Of a stretch of DNA of 64,000 bases, positions 11,549 through 24,940 are shown one piece after another. The number at the start of each line of letters is the position of its first letter. Position 1 is the stretch's first letter. The notes below the pieces were generated by a model that did no database searches, had not been told where the DNA came from, and worked only from the letters and a program-made list of their open reading frames with translations. Origin of the DNA: Desulfamplus sp. (GTDB lineage: Bacteria; Desulfobacterota; Desulfobacteria; Desulfobacterales; Desulfobacteraceae); assembly GCA_015232455.1 (NCBI GenBank), contig JADFZQ010000018.1, positions 318 to 64,317 on the forward strand. The letters are read 5' to 3'. The position numbers and the translations under genes are program-made.

Positions 11549-11628
11549 GAAGTAAAGATTTAAGATAGAGCTTGTTTAAATATTTAGGCTCTTAAGAAGT
11601 AAGAGAGACTCAAATTCTGAGGTAAAAA

Positions 11629-12123
11629 TTGATTTTAGCTCGTATCACAATCTGGATTACACACCCATTTCCCGCTTTACTTATAAGGTTTTATATTGGG
11701 GGAATATTTGTCTATGCAAGTCTGCATAAAATAAACCTTCCAGCCGAATTTTCAGACAACATTGCATCGTATCTGTTACTTCCGCATTGGATTGTCAATC
11801 CTATGGCTATATTTCTTCCTTGGATTGAACTTGTAAGCGGAGTATGTCTTATGGCTGGAATTCGTGTCAGAGCATCTGCGTCAATTATCTGTGGATTGCT
11901 TTTAATATTCACTATAGCCGTAATAGTCGTTCTTATAAAAGAGACTCCAATTGATTGTGGCTGTTTCCAGAACGTTGGCGATACTGTATCATGGCTTACT
12001 GTTGGGCGTGATTTAATTTGGCTTATTATGGGTTTATATGTTTATAAATACGATAACCTTATTCACCTTGATCGTCTATTTATGATTAAACCAGAAGATT
12101 TGGATAAACCTGATAACCTGTAA
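11629..12123 (+). CDS. MauE/DoxX family membrane protein
   Basis: GGIFVYASLHKI, LPWIELVSG and the IDCGCF motif. Confidence 0.88.
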   Translation: MILARITIWITHPFPALLIRFYIGGIFVYASLHKINLPAEFSDNIASYLLLPHWIVNPMAIFLPWIELVSGVCLMAGIRVRASASIICGLLLIFTIAVIVVLIKETPIDCGCFQNVGDTVSWLTVGRDLIWLIMGLYVYKYDNLIHLDRLFMIKPEDLDKPDNL

Positions 12124-12520
12124 TAAATGGGCTGGATTAAACGCGATGACCAAGACCATCACTTAGGCGAATTATATCTCTTTTTTGCATCTGTCTCAAT
12201 ATAGTGTTTTTTTTTAAGTGCAAAGTAATTTGTATATGACATTTAACTAATTGTTATAAATTTTTCTATTTAAGTAGAAAAGTTAAAGTATTATAATGCA
12301 TATCTTTGAAATTAAAATTACTGATGAAAAAAAACATTTTGATAAATATTAACAAAAGATGTATGTAAAAATAATGGCAACTTTGCAACAATTCTATTAA
12401 TAAATCCTGTTACGTGTAGCCCTACCTATGTTGTACCTTTTACGATAAAATCAAATAATAGTTTAGTAGCAAAGTAGTTAAGCTTAGATGGAAATCAATA
12501 ATTGCAAAAGGAGAGAGTCA

Positions 12521-15500
12521 ATGGATTTAAACAGAAGAGAGTTTATACAGGTTACAAGTGCCACTGCTGCGGGGCTTGCGGTAAGTGGTCTTGGATTTGA
12601 CCTGATGCCTGTAAAGGCACATGCCCAGATGTTAAAGACCAAATACGCCAAAGAGACAACTACAATCTGCTGCTACTGTGCAGTTGGCTGTGGTGCTATT
12701 GTCCACACAAGTCAAAGGGGCGATGGCAGGGTCATCAACATTGAAGGCGACCCTGATCATGTAATTAATCGAGGTGCTTTATGTCCAAAGGGTGCTTCAA
12801 TCAAACAATTAGTTGAAAATGAAAATAGACTAATACGCCCCATGTATCGCGCCCCATATTCAGATAAATGGCAGGCGGTATCATGGGATTGGGCTTTAGA
12901 GAATATTGCTAAGAAAGTTAAAGAGACAAGAGATGCCACTTTTGAGACTAAAAACTCTAAGGGTCAAGTAGTAAATAGAACAACAGCCATTGCATCTGTT
13001 GGTTCTGCTGCAATGGATAACGAAGAGTGTTGGACATATCAGGCAATGCTAAGGTCTCTTGGGCTTGTCTATGTTGAACATCAGGCTCGTATCTGACACA
13101 GTGCAACTGTAGCGGCTCTGGCAGAGTCGTTTGGACGCGGTGCAATGACCAACCATTGGATTGATATTAAAAACAGTGACTGTATTCTCATCATGGGCAG
13201 CAATGCCGCAGAAAACCACCCCATTTCCTTCAAATATGTAACCGAAGCAATGCAAAATGGTGCAAAACTCATAAGCGTTGATCCCCGTTTTACAAAAACA
13301 TCATCAAAAGCAGATATTTATGCCCCCTTACGTTCTGGAACTGATATTGCCTTTCTTGGCGGCATGATCAAGTATATTCTCGACAACAGCCTATATAATA
13401 AAGAATATACTGCTGAATACACAAACGCATCTTTTATTGTAGGTAAAGATTTTGATTTTAAAGATGGCTTCTTTTCAGGCTATACAAAAGGAAAAGAGGG
13501 TCCATCTATGGGCAGTTATGACAAATCTAAATGGGCTTTTGAAGTTGATGACAAGGGTATTCCAAAGATGGATAAAACCCTTGAAAATCCAAGAAGCGTA
13601 TTTCAGCTTATGAAAAAACATTATGAGCGTTATACCCCAGAGATTGTATCTACAATCACAGGCACATCAAAAGAAGATTTGTTAAAAGTTTATGAAACAT
13701 ATTCAGCTACTGGTAAGACAGGTAAAGCTGGCACAATCATGTATGCAATGGGTTGGACTCAACATACAGTTGGAACTCAGATGATCCGCACAATGTGCAT
13801 TATTCAGCTTCTTCTTGGCAACATGGGTGTTGCTGGCGGTGGTGTAAATGCTCTTCGCGGAGAGTCAAATGTTCAAGGTTCTACAGACCACGCATTGTTA
13901 TGGCACTTGTTACCAGGTTATCTTAAAGGAATCAAAGCATCTAACGACACTCTTACTGCCTATAACACCAAATGGACACCTAAGAGCTTTGATCCTCTCT
14001 CCATCAACTGGTGGCAGAATTATCCAAAATATTCTGTAAGTTTGTTAAAATCATTTTTCGGAGATAAGGCAAACAAAGATAATGATTTTGGTTTTTCATG
14101 GCTTCCAAAAGCAGATGACACAGGAAGTTACTCATGGTTTGACATCTTTGATGCAATGTATAAGGAGAAAATCAAAGGCTTCTTTGCATGGGGACAAAAC
14201 CCAGCTTGTTCAGGCTCAAACTCTACCAAAACAAGAAAGGCTTTAGAAAAGTTAGAGTGGATGGTCAATGTCAACCTATTTGACAATGAAACAGGCTCTT
14301 TCTGGCATGGACCTGGTGTTGATCCATCTAAGGTAAAAACTGAAGTTTTCATGCTGCCGGCAGCAGCTTCAGTTGAAAAAGAGGGTAGCATCATAAACTC
14401 TGGACGCTGGATGCAGTGGCGTTATCAAGGACCAAAACCAATGGGTGACAGCCGTCCTGATGGCGATATTATTCTTGAGCTTTTTAATAAGATAAAAGAG
14501 CTTTATCATAAAGATGCTGCAAATGGCGGGAATGAAAAAGTCGGCAAGAATGGCAAAAAAGGCAAGAAAAATAAGGAGAATAAAGTAAATAAAGGCGGAG
14601 CTTTCCCTGAGCCAATCTTAAATCTTAAATGGGATTATGCCACCAATGGTATTTATGATCCTCACAAAGTTGCAAAAGAGATTAATGGCTACTTCTTAGA
14701 AGATGTAACAATCAAAGATAAGCAGTATAAAAAAGGGACTCTTGTTCCTAACTTCACCATGCTTCAAGATAATGGCTCAACATCTTCTGGCTGCTGGGTT
14801 TACTGCGGTAGCTACACTGAAGATGGTAATATGTCAGCAAGAAAAGATACCACAGATGCTCCAAATAACATAGGACTCTATCCTAAATTTGCATGGGCTT
14901 GGCCCCTTAACCGCCGCATTATTTATAATCGTGCGTCAGTAAATGCTAAGGGAGAGCCTTGGAATAAAGATAAATGGGTTGTCAAATTTGCAGGTGAGCA
15001 AAAAGATGGTAAATGGACAACAAATAAGTGGGATGGCGATGTTCCAGATGGTGGTGCATTTCCACTTGAGAATCCTGATGGAACAAAACGTGAAGATGGA
15101 AAAAATCCATTTATCATGCAAAAAGATGGATATGGTCAGATATACGGATCAGGTCTTGCTGATGGTCCATTTCCTGAACACTACGAACCTTTAGAGTGTC
15201 CTGTTGAGAAAAATTATTTAAGTCCGCAGATGACCAACCCAACAGCAGTTGTTTATTCAACAAGTGAAGATGCACACGCAACCTGCGATCCAAGATTTCC
15301 GTTTGTCGGCACAACATACCGTGTCTGCGAACATTGGCAGACTGGTTTAATGACTCGTCCTCAAGCGTGGTTGATGGAGTTGCAGCCCCAGATGTTTGTT
15401 GAGATGAGTGAAGAGCTTGCAGCTTTAAGAGGAATTAAAAATGGAGAGCGTGTAAAGGTCAGCAGTGCAAGAGCATCAGTTGAATGCACAGCTATTGTAA

Positions 15501-15691
15501 CCAAACGCTTTAAACCGTTTAAAATTGGCAATGGTATTGTTCATCAAGTTGGTGTGCCTTGGCATTATGGCTGGATGTGGCCCTCAAGCGGAGCTGAAGA
15601 GAGTGCAAATCTCTTGACCCCATCTGCCGGCGATCCAAACACCCGTATTCCTGAAACCAAAGCATTCATGGTCAATGTAACCAAAATATAA
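12521..15691 (+). CDS. fdnG: Formate dehydrogenase-N-type alpha subunit, selenocysteine-containing, Tat-exported (Mo/W-bis-PGD)
   Basis: Twin-arginine signal NRREF and Fe-S motif CCYCAVGC...CPKG. An in-frame TGA at 13094-13096 lies in EHQARI-U-HSATVAALAESFGRGAMTNHW. Track ORFs 12488-13096 and 13145-15691 share one frame. ATG 12521 follows GGAG. Confidence 0.96.
13094..13130 (+). promoter_or_regulatory. Sec UGA codon plus bacterial SECIS hairpin
   Basis: TGA, then stem GCGGCTCT (13112-13119) / AGAGTCGT (13123-13130) with a G-containing apical loop about 23 nt after the UGA. Confidence 0.8.
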
Positions 15692-15705
15692 GGGAGGTGA
15701 TCAGC

Positions 15706-16425
15706 ATGGAAAAATCGTTTTTTATTGATACAACCATCTGCACAGGGTGCAGAGGATGCCAAGTAGCTTGCAAACAGTGGCATGACCTGCCTGCTGAAAG
15801 CACAAAGAATTTAGGGACATTCCAAAATCCACCTGATCTCTCATTTATGACCTATAAATTGGTGAGAATGAAAGAAGAACTTATTGAAAATAAATTAAAT
15901 TGGCTCTTTTTTCCAGATCAGTGCCGTCATTGCATAGAAGCTCCATGTTTGGAGATTGCTGAAAATTCTAATGCAATTTACAAAGATGCGTCAACTGGTG
16001 CAATTCTCTATACTGCAAAAACAAAAGAGCTTGATGCTGATGCCATTATTGAATCTTGCCCTTACAACATACCAAGAAAAAGAGAAGATGGAACACTTGC
16101 TAAATGTGATATGTGCAACGATCGTGTTCACAATGGACTGAAACCTGCTTGTGTTCAGACCTGCCCAACTGGCACAATGCAGTTTGGCGACCGTCAGGAG
16201 ATGTTGGATATGGCAAACAAAAGGATTGCCGAAGTTAAAGCAAAGTTCCCAAAAGCTTCACTTCTCAATTCTGATACTTTAAGTGTAATTTATCTTGTTG
16301 CCCATGAACCAAAATTTTACCACGACTATGCTGTTGCATCAAGCAGCAAAATGGAGAGAGGAATAAGCCGTAAAGTTGCACTACGTAAGATGATGGGTCC
16401 ATTTGCTTCACTTGTTCGTGTTTAA
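15706..16425 (+). CDS. fdnH: Formate dehydrogenase iron-sulfur beta subunit
   Basis: CTGCRGCQVAC, CRHCIEAPC, CDMCNDR and CVQTCP. No C-terminal TM anchor, so a soluble FdhAB type. Confidence 0.93.
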   Translation: MEKSFFIDTTICTGCRGCQVACKQWHDLPAESTKNLGTFQNPPDLSFMTYKLVRMKEELIENKLNWLFFPDQCRHCIEAPCLEIAENSNAIYKDASTGAILYTAKTKELDADAIIESCPYNIPRKREDGTLAKCDMCNDRVHNGLKPACVQTCPTGTMQFGDRQEMLDMANKRIAEVKAKFPKASLLNSDTLSVIYLVAHEPKFYHDYAVASSSKMERGISRKVALRKMMGPFASLVRV

Positions 16426-16477
16426 TGTTCCTATTTTTCGTGCTTAATTTTTTCTGTTTGATGAATTTAGTTTAATA

Positions 16478-16510
16478 AGATTTGACAACTTTCTAAAAGT
16501 TGTCAAATCT
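16478..16510. repeat. AGATTTGACAACT-hairpin repeat, copy 1
   Basis: AGATTTGACAACTTT-CTA-AAAGTTGTCAAATCT. The same arms occur at 34768-34801. Confidence 0.75.
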
Positions 16511-16550
16511 ATAAATCTATATCTCCAACCTTTTATAACCATTCAAATAC

Positions 16551-16579
16551 AGGGCTGCATATCTTAAATTAGCAGCCCT
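16551..16579. other. GC-rich hairpin between fdnH and fdhE
   Basis: AGGGCTGC / GCAGCCCT stem with no U-tract. Could be an mRNA stability or processing element. Confidence 0.4.
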
Positions 16580-16601
16580 CCATCTCAAATTAATTATAAC
16601 T

Positions 16602-17558
16602 ATGGATAACAGCATGACGATAGTTGATAGTTGTATCACACTGGAACAGATAAGAAAGTCAGCGTCATCTCTGAGAGTCTTAAGACCTGCATATAAAGAG
16701 TTAATTGATTTTTATGAGGAGTTTTTTATTGCTCAAGAAGAGGCTAAAACCCAAATCAACATTGATGCAATTGCAGTTGAGGTTGATAATCTGTTAAAGC
16801 TTAAAGCAGATAATACTATACCCTTGATAGCTACTTCCGACTTTGTGGTTTTTCCAAATCAAGCAGAGGTGCTTTTTGAAAAACTTTGCAAAATCGCAGA
16901 GGGAAAGGGACCTCCTTCTCTTAGCAGTGCAGCAGAAAAGATTGCTCTGCTGTTATTTAGCAACTCTTCTCAAGTAGAGAGCTATGATCAAACAGAGAAC
17001 TATAAAAAGATAGAGAGCATTTTTAAAGCATTATTAGGCAATGATCATGAAATATTAGAAACAACTGCCAAATCTCTTGAGTTGAACAAAGAGGCTCTAA
17101 CTTTTTTGGGATTTGCGGCAATATCTCCTTATATTCATACTTGTGCCGCCCATTTAAGCCAATACTTAAAACCTGACAGCCAAATTAAATCTGCACAAGA
17201 GAAATTATTGTGGAACAAAGGATATTGCCCTATCTGCGGCACTTCTCCTCAAATGGGTTATTTCAATCAAGATGGAGATAAATATCTTATATGCTCTTTT
17301 TGCCATCATAGCTGGAAAACATCGCGAATGGGATGTTCTTTATGTCAAAATCGGGAAAAGGGCAAACAACACTATTTTTTCAATGAAGAGGAAAAAGAGT
17401 ATCGTGTTGATCTTTGCGATAAGTGTGGAAAATATATTAAAGTTATTGATTTAAGAGAGATTACACGAGATTTTTATCCACCACTTGAGATGCTTTGCAC
17501 CCTTCATTTGGATATGCAGGCAACGGAACAGGGGTATATAAGTGTGCTGTCAAAATAA
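16602..17558 (+). CDS. fdhE: Formate dehydrogenase maturation protein FdhE
   Basis: CPICG, CSFC...W, CSLC and YRVDLCDKCGKYIK motifs, downstream of fdnGH. Confidence 0.92.
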   Translation: MDNSMTIVDSCITLEQIRKSASSLRVLRPAYKELIDFYEEFFIAQEEAKTQINIDAIAVEVDNLLKLKADNTIPLIATSDFVVFPNQAEVLFEKLCKIAEGKGPPSLSSAAEKIALLLFSNSSQVESYDQTENYKKIESIFKALLGNDHEILETTAKSLELNKEALTFLGFAAISPYIHTCAAHLSQYLKPDSQIKSAQEKLLWNKGYCPICGTSPQMGYFNQDGDKYLICSFCHHSWKTSRMGCSLCQNREKGKQHYFFNEEEKEYRVDLCDKCGKYIKVIDLREITRDFYPPLEMLCTLHLDMQATEQGYISVLSK

Positions 17559-18864
17559 ATCTATATGGATTTTTATAGTTATAGCTATCTCATTCAACCT
17601 ATTTGCTGGCTGTCAAGATGATGAAATTAAAGTTCCAATTCCCCCTATGACGCTAAATGTTGATGAGAACGAGGTTGTATTTGGATCGTCTTTAGCTTTG
17701 CAGGGTCATGCAGGCTATCTTGGACAGGAGACTCTTAAAGGTGCAATGTGTTATTTAAACCATGTCAATCAAAAAGGTGGAGTTCATGGACGAACTATTC
17801 GACTGATAACACGCGATGATAGTTATGATCCTCCAAAATGTCTTGCAAATACTCAGCAATTTATTATTGAAGATAGAGTTTTTGGGCTTTTCGGTTATGT
17901 GGGAACTCCCACAACCGTGAAGATTTTGCCTTTAGTTGAAGAAGCTGCAATTCCTCTGCTTGGTATGTTCACAGGTGCTAATGCCCTTAGAGAGCCTTTT
18001 TTGCCATACGTGATTAATGTGAGAGCATCATACTATCAAGAGACTGGTGCTGCTCTACAACATCTCGTGCAAGAGCTTGGACTTAACCGCATCGCTGTCT
18101 TTTATCAGTATGATGCTTTTGGATTTGATGGCTTAACAGGCACTGAGCTTGCACTAAAAAAATTTAATCTTGAGCTTGTAGCACGAGGCAGTTACGTTCG
18201 CGGAACACATGATATTAGAGAAGGTCTTGAAAAAATTATGGAGTCAGAGGCTCAGGCTGTTGTTATGATCGGAACATCAGACCCTTGTGCCAATTTTATA
18301 AGAAACTCTTTGCAAAATGGCTTTTCTCCTATTTTTTATATGGTCTCATTTGTTGGAGCACGTGAGTTATCACGAAATATTATGGATACTGATACTTCAA
18401 GTGTTAATGTTATAATGTCTCAGGTTGTTCCTCCTCCACGAACACAAGATGGTGGAATTGCCCCAAGTGCTGAAGAGTTTGCCCGTCTGCTTGAGCATTA
18501 TTATTCAGGTGAAGAGCCAAATTTTGTAGGATTTGAGGGGTATATTAATGCAAAAGTTTTAGTTGAAGGTTTGCAGCGGGCAGGAAGAGATTTAACACGG
18601 CAATCTTTTTTGCAGGCAATAAACTCAATGAATGATTTTTCTTTAGGTCCTGATGTTCGGCTCTCTTTTAGTCCAACTGACCATCAAGGCATGGATACGG
18701 TCTATTTTACGAGATTACAAAATAATCGTTTTACCCTACTTGCAGATTGGAAAGGGCTAAATAAAAAAAAGTCTATTCTCAATCGCGGGTCTGTAAGCAA
18801 TGATGGTAATTATAGCAGCGAGAGCAATGATCACGGAGTTAAAGAAAAAGGTAATTCTCTATGA
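17542..18864 (+). CDS. Periplasmic binding protein type 1 (LivK/branched-chain-like), probable lipoprotein, without a transporter
   Basis: FAGC lipobox-like signal, GGVHGRTIRLITRDDSYDP and EGYINAKVLVEGL. Overlaps the kinase start by 4 nt. Confidence 0.85.
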   Translation: MCCQNKSIWIFIVIAISFNLFAGCQDDEIKVPIPPMTLNVDENEVVFGSSLALQGHAGYLGQETLKGAMCYLNHVNQKGGVHGRTIRLITRDDSYDPPKCLANTQQFIIEDRVFGLFGYVGTPTTVKILPLVEEAAIPLLGMFTGANALREPFLPYVINVRASYYQETGAALQHLVQELGLNRIAVFYQYDAFGFDGLTGTELALKKFNLELVARGSYVRGTHDIREGLEKIMESEAQAVVMIGTSDPCANFIRNSLQNGFSPIFYMVSFVGARELSRNIMDTDTSSVNVIMSQVVPPPRTQDGGIAPSAEEFARLLEHYYSGEEPNFVGFEGYINAKVLVEGLQRAGRDLTRQSFLQAINSMNDFSLGPDVRLSFSPTDHQGMDTVYFTRLQNNRFTLLADWKGLNKKKSILNRGSVSNDGNYSSESNDHGVKEKGNSL

Positions 18865-20990
18865 TACGCTACTATCAACAACTATCTTTAAAAAATCAGA
18901 TTTACGTTACTATTTTGGTTGCAATTCTTATAATCAGTGCCACAATTGCACTTCTTGCCCGCTGGATTCTTATATCTGGATTAACCAAAGAGCTTGAGCT
19001 TCGAGGTATTGCAGTTGCCCACTCAATTGCCGAACGTGGGGCTGGCTTTGTGCTTGAAAAGAACTCACCAGAGCTTCTTAGCCTTATTTTTGATGAGGCA
19101 CGGCTAAGAGAGCGGCAGCACATGATAAATTATATCTACGTTTTAGATAGAGGCGGACAGGTTATCTCCCACACATTCACCTTCCCATTTCCGTTACAGT
19201 TTAGCAAAGCAAACCCAATGCCAGAAAATGCACTTCACAGTGTAAGACTTATTGAGCATGGAGCAAATACATCTTACGATATTGCAGTTCCAATGAGTGA
19301 GGGTTTATATAGAATTGGAACGGTTCATGTTGGTTTAAGCAAAGAGCATATTGATAATTTGGTCTCAAGATTGCGATTCATGTTTTTGGGTTTTATCTCT
19401 GCTGTAATAATACTTATCTTTTACGTAAGCCATCTTATTTCACGTCATATTACAATGCCCATAACCCGTCTGACCAGAATTTCAGATGAGTTGAGCCGCG
19501 GCAATTTTGATTTTAATTTAGATATGGACGATAATGGAGTTGATCCAGATGGAAACATAGGCTGGGGTATGAACAACTGTCCAGCTTATAAAGATACAAA
19601 CATGCCTTGCTGGCATTTTGATGAGCAAAGCCGCCGTTTTAGAAATATTGATAGTAAAAGCGAGCAGTTGTGCAGAACTTGTGTCTTTTATCGTAAAAGT
19701 CATGGACGCGATGAAGTTACTCAATTGGCTGATTCATTTCTTAATATGGTCTGGTCAATCCGGCTTTATCGTAAAAGGCTTCAAGAATCTGAGTTAAAAT
19801 ACCGCTCTCTTTTTGATTCAGCTCCAAACCCTATTTTTGTTGTTGAGTGTAATAACGAGATCATTTTAGATGCAAACCCTCGGGCTGCTGAACTTTATGG
19901 TTATCCACTTGAAAAGCTTTTTGGAATGCCTTTTGAGAAACTTGGACAAGATCACATTAAAGAGTGTCTTATCTCGATTGATAGCTTAGAGAATGAACTA
20001 AATAATCGTGATGGCTCAGAAAATACACTAAATAATAGCCAAGATAGGGGAGAGAATAGCAAATTAAATAAAGAGTTTAATAACAACGATACTCATAGAC
20101 CAACATATTTACGTGCCAGCGATTACGTCTATTATCCCAAGATTCTGCATCTTAAAAACGGTGGACATCCTTTTTATGTTAATATGCACGCCTGTCCAAT
20201 AAGCTATGGTGGAACTCAGGCAATTGTTGTTGCTGTAACTGATATTACAGAGATGATGGAAAAAGATGCTCAATTGGTTCAAGCAGCAAAAATGAAGACC
20301 CTTGGCGAAATGAGTGCTGGTATTGCACATGAGATAAATCAACCGCTCAATACCATTAAAATGGGCAGCGAGTACCTTAATCTGCTTTTAGACCAAAAAA
20401 GAGCAATAACTGAAGCCCAAATAAGAGATATGGCAACGGAGATAAGTGAGCAGGTTGACAGAGCTACTGAGATCATAAATAATCTTAGGGCTTTTGGTAG
20501 GAAATCAGGTTTGACTATGGAGAAGGTAAGTTTAACAGAGCCGATTCAGGGGGTTTTGTCAATTATTGGCCGTCAATTTTCCATTCAGAGAATTGCAATT
20601 CGTCTTGATCTTGCAGATAATCTACCGTTAGTAAAAGGGCACAATAACAGATTGCAGCAGGTTTTTTTTAATCTGCTAAATAATGCAAGAGATGCGATTC
20701 AAGAGAAGATGGATATTGAGCCTGAACTTTATGGCGATATACTTGTCCGTACATACGCTGAAAATGGCAAGGTTGTAGTTCTATTTAAAGATAATGGAGT
20801 TGGTATTCCAGACGAAGTTCGTAATAAAATTTTTGAGCCTTTTTTCACAACAAAACAGACAGGAAAAGGCATGGGTTTAGGTTTAGCAATTACTTATGGA
20901 ATTGTACGAGATTATGGCGGCACAATTACAATTGAGAGCAAACCAGGAGAGGGAACAACATTTGTTCTTACATTTTCAGCAGTGGACTGA
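18861..20990 (+). CDS. Sensor histidine kinase (TM-periplasmic-TM, HAMP with Cys4 insert, PAS, HisKA, HATPase)
   Basis: H-box [12 protein letters not shown]-box NLLNNARDA, and G-boxes DNGVG and GMGLGL. Confidence 0.93.
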
Positions 20991-21091
20991 TATTCTTAGT
21001 AAGAATTTATATAAATTAGGTTAGAAACAAGAATCAAATTCTATGACTTCAGTAAATTTTATAATATTTAATATAACGGGGCAAATAAAGT

Positions 21092-21352
21092 ATGAGGATC
21101 AATGTTATAAAAATAGGTAACTCACAAGGAGTTTTTATTCCACGACCATTTCTTGATCAAATTGGGATCAAAGATGATGTTGAAATTGAAGTGGATAAAA
21201 ATAGAATTATCATAACCCCTATTTTCGATTCAGTCCCAAGAGCGGGGTGGGAAAATGAATTTAAAGCAATGGCAAAAAAATTTGATGATAAATTAATAAT
21301 TGGAAAAGATATTGTTTCTCATTCATGGGATAATGAGGAATGGGAATGGTAG
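21092..21352 (+). CDS. mazE: AbrB/MazE family antitoxin
   Basis: IKIGNSQGVFIP...EIEV...IIITP, overlapping a MazF gene. Confidence 0.88.
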   Translation: MRINVIKIGNSQGVFIPRPFLDQIGIKDDVEIEVDKNRIIITPIFDSVPRAGWENEFKAMAKKFDDKLIIGKDIVSHSWDNEEWEW

Positions 21353-21669
21353 TAAATCGCTTTGATGTATACTTAACAAACCTTGATCAAACTGTTGGTG
21401 CTGAAATACAGAAAATAAGACCTTGTTTAATTATCTCGCCAAACGAAATGAACAAACATATCAATACAGTTATTATTGCCCCTATGACCACTGTTGCAAG
21501 AGATTATCCCACACGAATATTGTGCAATTTCCAAAACAAAAATGGGCAAATTGTTTTGGATCAGATTCGTACTATAGATAAAACTCGGTTAATAAAGAAG
21601 ATCGGTACCATTGATTCAGAAACTCAACATAGAGTCATTTCCGTGTTACTTAAGCTATTTGCATTTTAA
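21340..21669 (+). CDS. mazF: PemK/MazF family endoribonuclease toxin
   Basis: DQTVGAEIQKIRPCLIIS, IIAPMTT and LDQIRTIDKTRL. Confidence 0.93.
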   Translation: MGMVVNRFDVYLTNLDQTVGAEIQKIRPCLIISPNEMNKHINTVIIAPMTTVARDYPTRILCNFQNKNGQIVLDQIRTIDKTRLIKKIGTIDSETQHRVISVLLKLFAF

Positions 21670-21689
21670 ATTAACAAAGGCATAACAAA

Positions 21690-22466
21690 ATGGCAGAAAA
21701 AGAAGAAAAGATTGAAAATATTAATCAGGAAAAAATTGAACAAGAGAAGACTGCTCAAGAAAAAATTTTGGTTATTGATGACGAAAAAACTACACTTAAA
21801 ATGTTCAAATTATTTCTTGATCTATATGGTTTTGATATTCATACAGCAGAGTCTGGAGAAGAGGGGCTTAAAGTCTTTGATAGAGAAAAGCCTGAAATTG
21901 TGCTTACAGATATAAAGATGCCGGGCATGGATGGAATTGAAGTTTTAAAAGAGATTAAAAGACGATCTCCAACCACTGAGGTTATTGTCATTACAGGTCA
22001 TGGAGATATGGATTTAGCAATTCAAGCACTTAACCTTGATGCTGCTGATTTTATCAACAAACCAATCCAGCGTCAGAGTTTAGAACATGGATTAACAAGG
22101 GCGCGTGAGCGTCTAAAACTTGTCCGCAGCCGTCAAAATGATGTGAATACCACAATCCAAGACTCTAATTTTATTATTAAAATTCAGGGTAATGTGGGCA
22201 GTCAAAATGAGCAGTATTTAAGAGATGCATATACAAAAGCATTACAGAGCAAATCAAAACGGATAGTGTTGCATTTTGATTTAAACACCTCTGTTAATGG
22301 TGCTGGCATTGCTATTTTAACCCAGATTGTTCTTGATAGTGCAAAAGATGGAATTGAGATAGTTATGGCTGGTCTTTCGGACAATTTTAAGCGGGTATTT
22401 GATATTGTTGGTTTAAGCCGCATGGTAAGGCTTTACGGAACGATTGAAGAGGCTTGTCAAAAATAG
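21690..22466 (+). CDS. Response regulator with REC domain and C-terminal STAS domain
   Basis: LVIDD, the TDIKMPGMDG phosphoacceptor and FINKP, then a STAS-like segment IKIQGNV...RIVLHF...GAGIAIL...AGLSDNFKRVFDIVGL. Confidence 0.88.
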   Translation: MAEKEEKIENINQEKIEQEKTAQEKILVIDDEKTTLKMFKLFLDLYGFDIHTAESGEEGLKVFDREKPEIVLTDIKMPGMDGIEVLKEIKRRSPTTEVIVITGHGDMDLAIQALNLDAADFINKPIQRQSLEHGLTRARERLKLVRSRQNDVNTTIQDSNFIIKIQGNVGSQNEQYLRDAYTKALQSKSKRIVLHFDLNTSVNGAGIAILTQIVLDSAKDGIEIVMAGLSDNFKRVFDIVGLSRMVRLYGTIEEACQK

Positions 22467-22495
22467 TATATATTAAAAATATGGAGGTTAATGTT

Positions 22496-23071
22496 ATGAA
22501 AACATTCAGAGTTAATATTTTGTTTATTATTGTTAATATCTTGTTGGTTGTTACCTCTATTTACCGTGTAAATCTACTTTTTGCAGCACAACCAAAAGCT
22601 GGAGATAAGCTACCAGCTTTGACTCTACCAGCTCCACACTATGAGGCGGGTAAACAGTCTTTGGGCATAGACCAAAATTCTCCCAAGTTTACTATTTCTG
22701 ACTTTAAAAGCGAGCTTATCATTATTGAAGTTATTGGCGTCTATTGTCCGCAATGTTTTAAACAAGCACCATCATTTAACAATCTTTATGGGCGTTTAAA
22801 CAAGGGAAAGATGAAGGGGCGGGTTGTCATGTTTGCAATAGCTGCTGGCGGCACAGAGCCAGAGATTGATCAACTTATAAAAGGCGGTCAATACAACTTT
22901 CCAGTTATAAGCGATATGAAATATGAGGCTCACAAAACTCTTGGTGAACCTAAAACCCCTTTTACAATAATATCCAGACCAAATGGATCAATAGTTTATA
23001 CTCATCTTGGAATTATTGAAGATATTGATAAATTTTACGGAGAGATAAAGAGTCTTCTTTCTAAACCATGA
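22496..23071 (+). CDS. Exported TlpA/peroxiredoxin-like thioredoxin-fold protein
   Basis: Signal peptide, YCPQC (CxxC), FPVISD and TPFTII. ATG 22496 follows GGAGG. Confidence 0.85.
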   Translation: MKTFRVNILFIIVNILLVVTSIYRVNLLFAAQPKAGDKLPALTLPAPHYEAGKQSLGIDQNSPKFTISDFKSELIIIEVIGVYCPQCFKQAPSFNNLYGRLNKGKMKGRVVMFAIAAGGTEPEIDQLIKGGQYNFPVISDMKYEAHKTLGEPKTPFTIISRPNGSIVYTHLGIIEDIDKFYGEIKSLLSKP

Positions 23072-23142
23072 CCATTTCTAAATACACTCCAATTTCAGCC
23101 ACTGACCCATCGTGGTCAGAAGGCGGCTATATTATCTAAACT

Positions 23143-24831
23143 ATGACAACGTCTCAAGATACTCCACTTTTAGAGCAATGTTTATTTTCAGAGCAATTTG
23201 AACGTAAACACTATCAACTCTCAGTAATTAGAGAGAGTGCTGCTGAATTTGGAGGAGTTCGTAATCCAAAGCAGATTTTAGAGGCATTTTTGATGTCAGC
23301 TCAGGGGGGAGTTGGTGCAAAAGGTGGATTTGTTTTTCTCACAGGAGAGGATAATTACCTATTTTGCAGAGGCATTGATAAGATAGAAGATGATTACATA
23401 AAAAGTTTAATTAATAAAGCATCTGACCATATTATTGACAAATCAGAGAGCTTACCCTTCTTTCTTGATTTATCAATAGTTAAAAATACTATTCAACCTT
23501 TTACTATTCAAACTTCAGCCCCTGTTCTTTTATTAGTATCTCCAATAGAAGATGGCAGATTAGTTTTTTTAGGGTTGATTGATTCACTGCATGGAAGAGA
23601 TTACGACTCAGATGACATGCAGCTTCTAATAATTATAGCCTCTATGTTTCAGATAAGCCTTAACTCCGCTATTTTTTCTACAAAGGTAGAGCTTCTTAAT
23701 TCACAACTTCAAAAAAAGAACATTGAACTTGACCGTCAAGTATTTCATCTCAATGCTTTGCGTGAGCTATCTTTAGAGGTAGGAGAGGCTCATAGCGTGG
23801 ATAATATTCTTTCCTCTTTTTTGCCAACTCTGCTTGGCAGGTTTTTAAGGCATCAAGGTGTTGTAGTTATCTACGATAGAGCAGCAGGATCAATAAATGC
23901 AAAGAGCATGGGAATAGAGCAGGGTGGCTCAATAAATGATATTTTAAATGATCCTCTCCAAGTTGATCGACTTCTATTTCTATCCCTTGCAGGAGTGCAA
24001 AATAAACATATACAGCCGTTGCAGGTAGAGCCTATCATTGAGCTTGAATCTCTGTCATCTTTTATTAAAGACTTTGTGCCTGAAACAGGATTTCTATTCT
24101 TGATAAAAGAACAGATGTATGGGGCTTTACTTCTTGGCAGCCCATTAGAAGAGCGTAAATTTTCTGAACAAGAGCGAGAGCTTCTTTTTGCATCTGTATC
24201 TCAATCTGTTCTCCATATAAAAAATGCAGATTCATTTGCCACGATTGTGGCGTTAAATGAGAACCTTGAGCAGCAAAATGAGGAGCTTCGTAAAACTATT
24301 GATGAACTTATTAACGCACAGAATCGTATAAGTGTTCTTGAAACAGCGGCAAGGCGGATTGCAAATATAGTAAATCGCAATGCTGATAAGATAATGAAGG
24401 TTCGCCCACTTGATTTTCTCCTTATTATTGGAATAAGTGTAATACTTGGTCTATTGTTTAACTTTCAAAGTCCGCGTGGTATTCCAATAATGCCAATACC
24501 CAGACCAGCACTTGTTAAGACAATCTCTGTAGATGATGCCAAAATTTTGATTGAAAAGGATAAAGCTCTCCTTATTGATGCAAGACCTCGTGAGTTTTAC
24601 GAGATGCGCCATGCTAAAGGTGCTGTAAATCTCTCGCCATCTCTTTTTGATTCAAGTTATCCCATGAATTTTGAAAATGAAGACCCAGAGCGTCCGATTA
24701 TAATTTATGGCAGAAGTTTTAGTCGCCTTTATGATGAAGATATTGCAAGGAAATTTTTTAATCGGGACCACGAAAAAATATATTTAGTTGATGATATAGT
24801 TGAGAAAATATATCAGCTTGAAGTAAGGTAA
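23143..24831 (+). CDS. GAF-GAF-coiled coil-TM-rhodanese-like fusion protein
   Basis: Two GAF-like blocks (LGLIDSLHGRDYDSDDMQLL and LLLGSPLEERKFSEQERELL), a heptad coil, one TM, then a rhodanese fold (LIDARP...HAKGAVNL...IIIYG). Confidence 0.7.
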   Translation: MTTSQDTPLLEQCLFSEQFERKHYQLSVIRESAAEFGGVRNPKQILEAFLMSAQGGVGAKGGFVFLTGEDNYLFCRGIDKIEDDYIKSLINKASDHIIDKSESLPFFLDLSIVKNTIQPFTIQTSAPVLLLVSPIEDGRLVFLGLIDSLHGRDYDSDDMQLLIIIASMFQISLNSAIFSTKVELLNSQLQKKNIELDRQVFHLNALRELSLEVGEAHSVDNILSSFLPTLLGRFLRHQGVVVIYDRAAGSINAKSMGIEQGGSINDILNDPLQVDRLLFLSLAGVQNKHIQPLQVEPIIELESLSSFIKDFVPETGFLFLIKEQMYGALLLGSPLEERKFSEQERELLFASVSQSVLHIKNADSFATIVALNENLEQQNEELRKTIDELINAQNRISVLETAARRIANIVNRNADKIMKVRPLDFLLIIGISVILGLLFNFQSPRGIPIMPIPRPALVKTISVDDAKILIEKDKALLIDARPREFYEMRHAKGAVNLSPSLFDSSYPMNFENEDPERPIIIYGRSFSRLYDEDIARKFFNRDHEKIYLVDDIVEKIYQLEVR

Positions 24832-24940
24832 AAAGAGTGATTTTGAAACATATAAGTACGTCAATGGAGCTAAACCAGCCATTAGGTGATATAGCGTCTC
24901 TTAAATTATTTGTGGAAATAAAAATAAGCAATATTTACGA

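Follow-up and report, generated by a model that had tools for sequence, protein, structure and literature searches.

The locus described here raises the question of whether the genes that surround a selenocysteine (Sec) formate dehydrogenase (FDH) in Desulfamplus sp. form a working unit with the enzyme, and what such a unit would do. The genes lie at 11629 to 24831 of a 64,000-nucleotide stretch (GenBank assembly GCA_015232455.1, contig JADFZQ010000018.1, positions 318 to 64,317 of the forward strand), referred to below as the window, in a genome of 4.35 Mb that is 98.5% complete. A first-pass annotation made from the letters of the sequence had proposed a post-translational circuit coupling a periplasmic ligand and thiol-redox state to FDH. 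The run of genes is more than a chance assembly, the same neighbours being found again in more than 100 loci of other genomes. The module is read here, tentatively and at somewhat less than an even chance, as signal-controlled periplasmic disulfide chemistry with FDH as its main client.

The co-directional run named by the first-pass annotation was present in full and on the + strand throughout, as judged by domain and open reading frame (ORF) calls, and consists of the following features (TM, transmembrane; aa, amino acids).

11629..12123, + strand, MauE of the MauE/DoxX family (PF07291, 94 bits against a cut-off of 27)
12124..12487, + strand, AT-rich gap (26% GC) upstream of fdnG, the likely FDH promoter region
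12488..15691, + strand, FdhA/FdnG catalytic subunit with Tat signal and Sec (TIGR01553, the FDH-N alpha equivalog, 1472 bits against a cut-off of 814)
15697..16425, + strand, FdhB/FdnH iron-sulfur subunit (Fer4_11 and TIGR01582 matches)
16602..17558, + strand, FdhE-like accessory protein (FdhE_central and FdhE_C; TIGR01562 at E 2.8e-14, below cut-off)
17542..18864, + strand, type I periplasmic binding lipoprotein (Peripla_BP_6)
18861..20990, + strand, histidine kinase with sCache_3_2, HAMP, PAS, HisKA and HATPase domains (Pfam)
21092..21669, + strand, MazE/MazF toxin-antitoxin pair, not part of the module (domain calls)
21690..22466, + strand, REC-STAS response regulator (receiver and STAS domains; PF01740, 50 bits)
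22454..23071, + strand, exported TlpA/ResA-like CPQC redoxin (Redoxin and AhpC-TSA domains; ResA at 1.6e-11)
23143..24831, + strand, tandem GAF-long helix-TM-rhodanese-like protein of 562 aa, below the GAF-rhodanese protein (Pfam rhodanese, structure model and fold search)

The overlaps already noted between fdhE and the binding-protein gene and between the binding-protein and kinase genes measure 17 nt and 4 nt (ATGA), respectively, and the toxin-antitoxin pair described as an insertion is MazE/MazF. The statement that no component binds DNA stood for the window's proteins with the exception of the inserted MazE, which is AbrB-type. The genome carries one copy each of the sensing core (binding protein, kinase and REC-STAS), of the trio proteins (redoxin, GAF-rhodanese protein and MauE) and of the periplasmic FDH.

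Recurrence of the run was established by a search for the binding protein that covered 41 relatives plus 401 genomes from the order, followed by a profile search of all GTDB species. About 160 loci were fetched and the window proteins mapped onto them; fetched loci and genomes carry the labels L and G below. Loci with at least 7 kb on both sides were treated as well-flanked, which gave 37 loci in the order sample and 41 loci in the GTDB top 80, with the following neighbours.

Kinase beside the binding protein: 35/37 in the order sample, 39/41 in the GTDB top 80
REC-STAS near the binding protein: 25/37 in the order sample, 41/41 in the GTDB top 80
GAF-rhodanese protein plus MauE near the binding protein: 13/37 in the order sample, 33/41 in the GTDB top 80

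The recurring gene order was binding protein, kinase, REC-STAS, redoxin, GAF-rhodanese protein and MauE, with frequent 4-nt overlaps between genes; in relatives MauE is usually followed by a lipoprotein of ~110 aa, which the window lacks. Carriers include Desulfobacula, Desulfotignum, Desulfatibacillum, Desulfomicrobium, Syntrophobacteraceae, Desulfarculales and the isolate Desulfoferrobacter suflitae DRH4. To judge from these gene neighbourhoods, a conserved unit occurs across the Thermodesulfobacteriota and has two sub-units, the sensing core and the trio, a predicted set of periplasmic thiol oxidoreductases. Homologues lying mostly apart from FDH and from each other, the pattern that the first-pass annotation had named as speaking against its proposal, were not what was found, as the neighbours recur. 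No description of the module was found in the literature on FDH with a binding protein or kinase, on STAS regulators of sulfate reducers, or on FdhAB with a periplasmic thioredoxin.

A Sec-FDH alpha gene lay within ~9 kb of the binding protein in 16/37 and 18/41 of the well-flanked loci (43-44%); the chance expectation, with one such FDH per 4.35 Mb, is ~0.5% per locus. At least four arrangements were observed. FDH may follow MauE and the small lipoprotein; it may immediately precede the binding-protein gene, as in the window's clade among others; it may be divergent from that gene, as in loci of the Desulfomicrobium and Desulfovibrio types; or it may lie in convergent orientation behind the gene for the kinase or REC-STAS. 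In a maximum-likelihood tree built from 62 binding proteins, linkage to FDH changed at least nine times, at least seven of these changes being forced by well-supported branches; the other seven rows of the window's clade were not FDH-linked. A shorter form of the trio (redoxin, cNMP_binding-TM-rhodanese protein, MauE and lipoprotein) was found beside fdhE and an FDH gene on one contig (L186).

These counts also bear on a wider explanation, general envelope redox homeostasis, in which disulfide formation by MauE would be tuned for many periplasmic proteins and FDH would be just a neighbour. More than half of the well-flanked loci are without a nearby FDH and 4/37 have NiFe hydrogenase genes near the binding protein, both of which favour such a general role. 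It is nonetheless distinctly unlikely, given that FDH proximity is far above the chance rate per locus and has been regained in several gene orders, and that FDH is present in 32/35 sampled genomes with a full-length GAF-rhodanese protein against 147/366 without one, counts that are descriptive because related genomes are not independent.

Periplasmic NiFe hydrogenase genes and an MMPL-fused histidine kinase adjoin binding-protein/kinase pairs in L052, L054, L063, L070, L071 and L084. Selenium was not supported as a shared cue for FDH and the hydrogenases: four of five large-subunit ORFs end in a DPCxxC-type motif, with Cys at the Sec position, and no TGA read-through at the hydrogenase motif was seen in the five ORFs read, the fifth (L054) being without the motif.

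The FdnG gene has an in-frame TGA at 13094-13096 in the active-site context ARI-U-HS. A match to SECIS_3 (13091-13149) begins 3 nt ahead of this codon and, at E 7.7e-4, stays under the Rfam gathering score; the 52-nt gap between the matched halves at the Sec codon is the same in the FDH genes of relatives. The Tat export motif NRREFIQ is found at the N-terminus. The closest solved relatives of FdhA are 1H0H and 6SDR (E = 0 to both); the enzyme is of the soluble FdhAB type and not of the FdnGHI type. No gene for a third, membrane cytochrome b subunit lies between fdnH and fdhE in the window, and no membrane anchor was apparent by eye in the C-terminal sequence of FdhB/FdnH. This FDH is the only enzyme of its type in the genome, where the FdhE-like gene is also single copy.

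A Cys pair of the window FdhA, in LECPV...HATCDPR, aligns with the ECPV and AVCDPR cysteines of 1H0H and is kept in 36/42 module-adjacent FDHs. As judged by this alignment, the pair is homologous to the allosteric disulfide of Desulfovibrio FdhA. The switch was reported by Oliveira et al. 2024, on the account of a later paper (PMC13397495): a surface allosteric disulfide in FdhAB of Desulfovibrio (Nitratidesulfovibrio) vulgaris holds the enzyme inactive and O2-stable, and its reduction activates the enzyme. In the literature searched, no account was found of what makes or breaks this disulfide in the cell.

The trio contains two proteins whose cysteines could carry out such chemistry. The redoxin has the motif C98-P-Q-C101, and at least 90% of 61 orthologues keep CPxC; its start is probably ATG 22496, behind GGAGG, so that the overlap with the REC-STAS gene is doubtful. 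MauE has the motif C110-G-C112 (CXC), and CGC recurs in at least 90% of 53 orthologues. By fold and CXC motif it is a DsbB-like membrane protein and a predicted disulfide former. MauE from Desulfatibacillum and Caldithrix replaces DsbB in Escherichia coli, has CXC as its active site, probably works through a thioredoxin-fold partner, and has been proposed as a generalist disulfide former in phyla without DsbB and VKOR (bioRxiv 10.64898/2026.03.05.709764). In the window's genome neither DsbB nor VKOR was found, which together with that proposal speaks for MauE serving the envelope at large; the genome has three MauE paralogues, so the window copy can be specialised, which speaks for a narrower role.

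The third member of the trio stands between these two genes in most carriers. Pfam finds just the rhodanese domain in the 562-aa protein, its GAF domains being visible only in the structure model. An AlphaFold model (15 orthologues; mean predicted local distance difference test [pLDDT] 76) has two GAF-like folds connected through long helices, a helix of 75 residues, a TM segment at aa 422-442 and a periplasmic rhodanese domain at aa 459-560, and Foldseek searches with the N-terminal part returned tandem-GAF structures (PDE5, PDE2, PDE6 and phytochromes) at probability 1.0 and E 4e-9 to 1e-6. The GAF-GAF-TM-rhodanese-like architecture given by the first-pass annotation was thereby borne out, both GAF folds included. 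In the active-site loop IIIYG-RSFS, Gly523 occupies the position of the catalytic Cys, and the protein was accordingly rejected as a rhodanese sulfurtransferase; at least 90% of 52 orthologues keep G523, R524 and S527, so that the dead rhodanese site is a family trait. The family is found mostly in Thermodesulfobacteriota and is annotated only as "rhodanese-like" or hypothetical.

In the short rhodanese membrane protein (L186:3008-3922; also L187-L189) a cNMP_binding domain replaces the tandem GAFs, and this form holds the same slot, between redoxin and MauE. The replacement is the sole hint that the GAF module might bind a cyclic nucleotide. By sequence, the GAF part is most closely related to GAF-GAF class III nucleotide cyclases (L185:1282-7200), whose neighbouring genes code for a STAS protein, a receiver, an RsbW-like kinase and a protein that binds cNMP.

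In the sensing core, the binding-protein gene starts at a GTG behind AGGGG, the sole start that retains the signal peptide, and encodes the lipobox LFAGC. The invariant cysteines are C24 (lipobox), C100 and C249, the latter two being a further point for disulfide formation that extends to periplasmic proteins other than FDH. Its model has a pLDDT of 84, and the closest solved structures are 4KV7 and 3LOP, the entry titles of which name no ligand, so that they neither favour nor disfavour formate, the candidate ligand of the first-pass annotation; 4KV7, the closest solved homologue, keeps C249 and not C100. The kinase gene is coupled to the binding-protein gene and no ABC transporter genes were found in the run by the domain calls of the window, which is the arrangement of a binding-protein-dependent sensor kinase. 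The kinase HAMP domain carries a 4-Cys insert (19521-19706) between its helices, in which a Pfam search found no domain. The insert is present in 87/109 orthologues and is commoner where a GAF-rhodanese gene is present (50/55 vs 16/31).

The REC-STAS protein is the only full-length one in the genome. Its receiver is intact (D30, D31, D74, T102, K124), and in the STAS motif NGAG, Asn203, conserved in at least 90%, falls, by manual comparison with the SpoIIAA motif DSSGLG, at the phospho-Ser position of SpoIIAA/RsbV. With Asn203 in place of the phosphorylated Ser, the STAS domain would answer only to phosphorylation of the receiver. A role as SpoIIAA/RsbV-type anti-sigma antagonist was rejected: the STAS fold is present, but by the manual comparison the Ser is missing, and no genes for an RsbW-type kinase, a PP2C phosphatase or a sigma factor lie within the module.

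Taken as a chain, the kinase would integrate a periplasmic ligand, sensed by way of the binding protein, of its own Cache domain or of both; a redox or metal signal from the cytoplasm would probably enter as well, by the 4-Cys insert. The kinase would phosphorylate REC-STAS, which would act on the GAF-rhodanese protein, either directly or through a small GAF ligand. The GAF-rhodanese protein would then gate the MauE/redoxin pair from the inside out, and the pair would set the periplasmic disulfide state, with the FdhA Cys pair as prime client. We infer the protein-protein steps, the ligand, the direction of electron flow and the role of FDH as client. In its complete form, as an inside-out device running from the two-component system through REC-STAS and the GAF-TM-dead rhodanese protein to a MauE/redoxin pair that writes or erases the FdhAB disulfide, the scheme is unlikely.

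Several observations weigh against signal-controlled disulfide chemistry with FDH as main client. FDH linkage is equal in loci without the trio (10/22) and with it (6/13), so that the link to FDH may belong to the sensing core alone. In two genomes of the same genus (G004 and G006) core, trio and FDH lie on different contigs, and in a third (G013) core and FDH are on separate contigs, a full-length GAF-rhodanese protein not having been found there. The redoxin was rejected as a MauD equivalog, since NCBIfam gives only ResA (1.6e-11, below cut-off) and StoA for it; two MauE paralogues besides the window copy are present in the genome; and the Cys pair of FdhA also occurs in 1H0H, the enzyme of Desulfovibrio gigas. 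Within the run, the gaps of 364 nt before fdnG and 176 nt before fdhE may divide it into separate transcription units. When REC-STAS was co-folded with residues 1-420 of the GAF-rhodanese protein, the score was 0.00, a result that counts neither for nor against binding.

The equal linkage of FDH with and without the trio is also a point in favour of a transcriptional explanation, in which the core would control fdh transcription via contact of REC-STAS with a regulator elsewhere in the genome, and the trio would be a separate oxidative-folding or envelope thiol system travelling along. Where the trio is absent, a protein of ~1100 aa is often found between REC-STAS or the kinase and the FDH genes. 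Its domains are AAA_16/NACHT, TPR, a weak match to Trans_reg_C, and BTAD, the layout of a STAND ATPase-TPR-winged helix-turn-helix (wHTH)-BTAD protein. The trio and the STAND-BTAD protein never occur together in one locus, and as mutually exclusive partners of one core, the trio and the STAND-SARP-like regulator suggest that both are outputs, a point for the disulfide reading.

Upstream of fdnG, two to three TGTAACC heptamers with a period of 10-12 nt (~11) precede a -10-like box in 7/8 STAND-BTAD loci; TGTAACC tandem repeats were found in 3/41 other loci and in 3/2450 shuffled sequences. Regulator and heptamer repeats coincide in L022, L025, L064-L067 and L071; L075 is grouped with these loci. 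Direct repeats of heptamers are the promoter site of SARP-type regulators such as AfsR, ActII-ORF4 and DnrI. The presence of SARP-type repeats beside a STAND-BTAD gene argues that the core controls fdh transcription in such lineages, and hence that the sensing core can also act on transcription outside the window's lineage. In Desulfomicrobium/Desulfovibrionaceae a different conserved protein is encoded upstream of fdnG and divergent from the binding-protein gene (L105:8860-9720, L156:8825-9763, L167:18128-19069). An IS1595 zinc ribbon and an IS1595 DDE domain were recognised in this protein, together with a weak HTH, and it may be a domesticated transposase acting as a regulator, which would again favour control at the level of transcription.

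For the window itself, transcriptional control by the core with an unconnected trio is possible and, on balance, rather unlikely. The window's 98.5% complete genome yielded no homologue of the STAND-BTAD regulator or of the IS1595-like protein, and no TGTAACC tandem repeats lie upstream of the window fdnG; furthermore, the trio follows REC-STAS by short gaps or overlaps in most carriers, and the short trio variant is itself next to FDH genes. No sigma-54 promoter was found upstream of the window fdnG, and one weak match was found in 49 fdnG upstream regions; the stretch TGGCAAC...TTGCAAC upstream of the window fdnG was rejected as a sigma-54 site because its spacing is wrong. The post-translational circuit proposed in the first-pass annotation thus survives in part: homologue linkage, together with the literature on MauE and on the FdhAB switch, fits a thiol-redox link to FDH activity, whereas a purely post-translational reading is not supported, as the same core elsewhere adjoins a STAND-wHTH-BTAD regulator and SARP-type repeats upstream of fdnG.

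The gene order in the window departs from that of most carriers. The close relative G005 is colinear with window positions 12206-24853 and has MauE after the GAF-rhodanese gene, and two copies of this junction were located in the window.

11612..11647, + strand, relic of the GAF-rhodanese 3' end fused to the start of MauE, a permutation breakpoint, which aligns to the G005 junction
24818..24853, + strand, end of the GAF-rhodanese gene and, behind its stop, a relic of the MauE start, the second breakpoint, which aligns to the same single G005 junction

Junction copies at both ends of the cluster, together with the order in G005, indicate from the alignments that the MauE-first order of the window is derived, not ancestral, and is a recent circular permutation, for which tandem duplication followed by two deletions would be the simplest mechanism. 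Contigs of a related strain from a groundwater metagenome have Band7 joined directly to the binding protein and the GAF-rhodanese gene directly to MauE. A metagenome contig of a related strain also joins 20994 to 21643, linking the kinase to the REC-STAS upstream region without MazEF, and among relatives the MazEF pair was found in the window and G005 only; by these comparisons MazEF is a recent and polymorphic insertion.

A permuted cluster with an inserted MazEF pair, and parts on different contigs in some genomes of the same genus, might suggest fortuitous adjacency, the run being a rearrangement mosaic whose parts have no functional tie. This is very improbable, as the linkage is conserved over more than 100 loci from many families and several classes, in different orders.

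Transcription of the run was considered from two sides. A promoter/terminator scan gave counts no higher than in shuffled sequence, so that it neither splits nor joins the run, and found no terminator in the intergenic gaps of the run. Contigs from metatranscriptome run X12 were 90-95% alike (relatives), and among the matches listed no gene junction was bridged. In the gap between fdnH and fdhE, positions 16477-16510 form a short AT-rich stretch common to many unrelated metagenome contigs, with a word depth of 47-147 and loose ends on both sides in all four runs; it looks low-complexity or repeat-like.

FdhAB of sulfate reducers is among the best biological catalysts of CO2 reduction. If the disulfide reading is true, a signal-controlled MauE/redoxin pair would supply candidate genes for the operator of the FdhAB switch, and signal transduction, rather than ambient redox chemistry alone, would govern both the activity of the enzyme and its protection from oxygen. 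The two-component system would have periplasmic thiol chemistry, not transcription, as its output. A role would also follow for ~250 proteins now called "rhodanese-like" or hypothetical, as would a physiological context for MauE, whose recognition as a disulfide former in this phylum is very recent. For other lineages, a SARP-like output with TGTAACC repeats provides a testable model of the control of fdh transcription.

Among known systems, the one closest to the proposed target is the FdhAB switch of Desulfovibrio vulgaris, of which the window FDH is a close homologue with both switch cysteines kept; we only infer the tie of that switch to the window module. The MauE/MauD pair of the methylamine-utilisation cluster likewise combines a four-helix MauE with a periplasmic CXC and an exported thioredoxin-fold CxxC protein, and the DsbB-replacing MauE of Desulfatibacillum comes from the same order as the window. 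The window differs in having no mau genes, a TlpA/ResA-like redoxin, a GAF-TM-rhodanese gene in between and a two-component system upstream. The MauE preprint mentions neither rhodanese nor gene neighbours (bioRxiv 10.64898/2026.03.05.709764). For the tethered rhodanese fold, the nearest parallel is DoxX-SseA-SodA, in which a DoxX/MauE-type membrane protein is likewise found with a rhodanese-fold protein in thiol homeostasis; the rhodanese fold of the window has no Cys and is tethered to cytoplasmic GAF sensors. In Mycobacterium tuberculosis, DoxX-SseA-SodA is a membrane oxidoreductase complex, and SseA is an active sulfurtransferase.

Periplasmic binding proteins are the ligand receptors of sensor kinases in TorT/TorS and LuxP/LuxQ, and TorTS controls a periplasmic molybdoenzyme. 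The window shares with these systems a transporter-less binding-protein gene that overlaps the gene of a kinase with a periplasmic PAS/Cache-type domain, and differs from them in that its binding protein belongs to the LivJ/AmiC type (Peripla_BP_6) instead of the ribose-binding type, and its regulator has no DNA-binding domain. The regulator found beside fdnG in relatives shares with SARP regulators a wHTH-BTAD part with STAND ATPase and TPR, and heptamers at a period of ~11 nt; compared with AfsR its domain order is reversed, the ATPase coming first, and its host is a member of the Thermodesulfobacteriota. In RsfS/RsfR of Mycobacterium smegmatis a two-component system feeds partner-switching and reports on the respiratory chain (PMC10950880). 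As in the window, the receivers of RsfS/RsfR, of RsbK/RsbY (Bacillus cereus) and of PhyR (Alphaproteobacteria) control an output by protein contact and not by DNA binding; those systems have a PP2C phosphatase or a sigma-like domain attached to the receiver, whereas in the window the receiver is joined to STAS itself.

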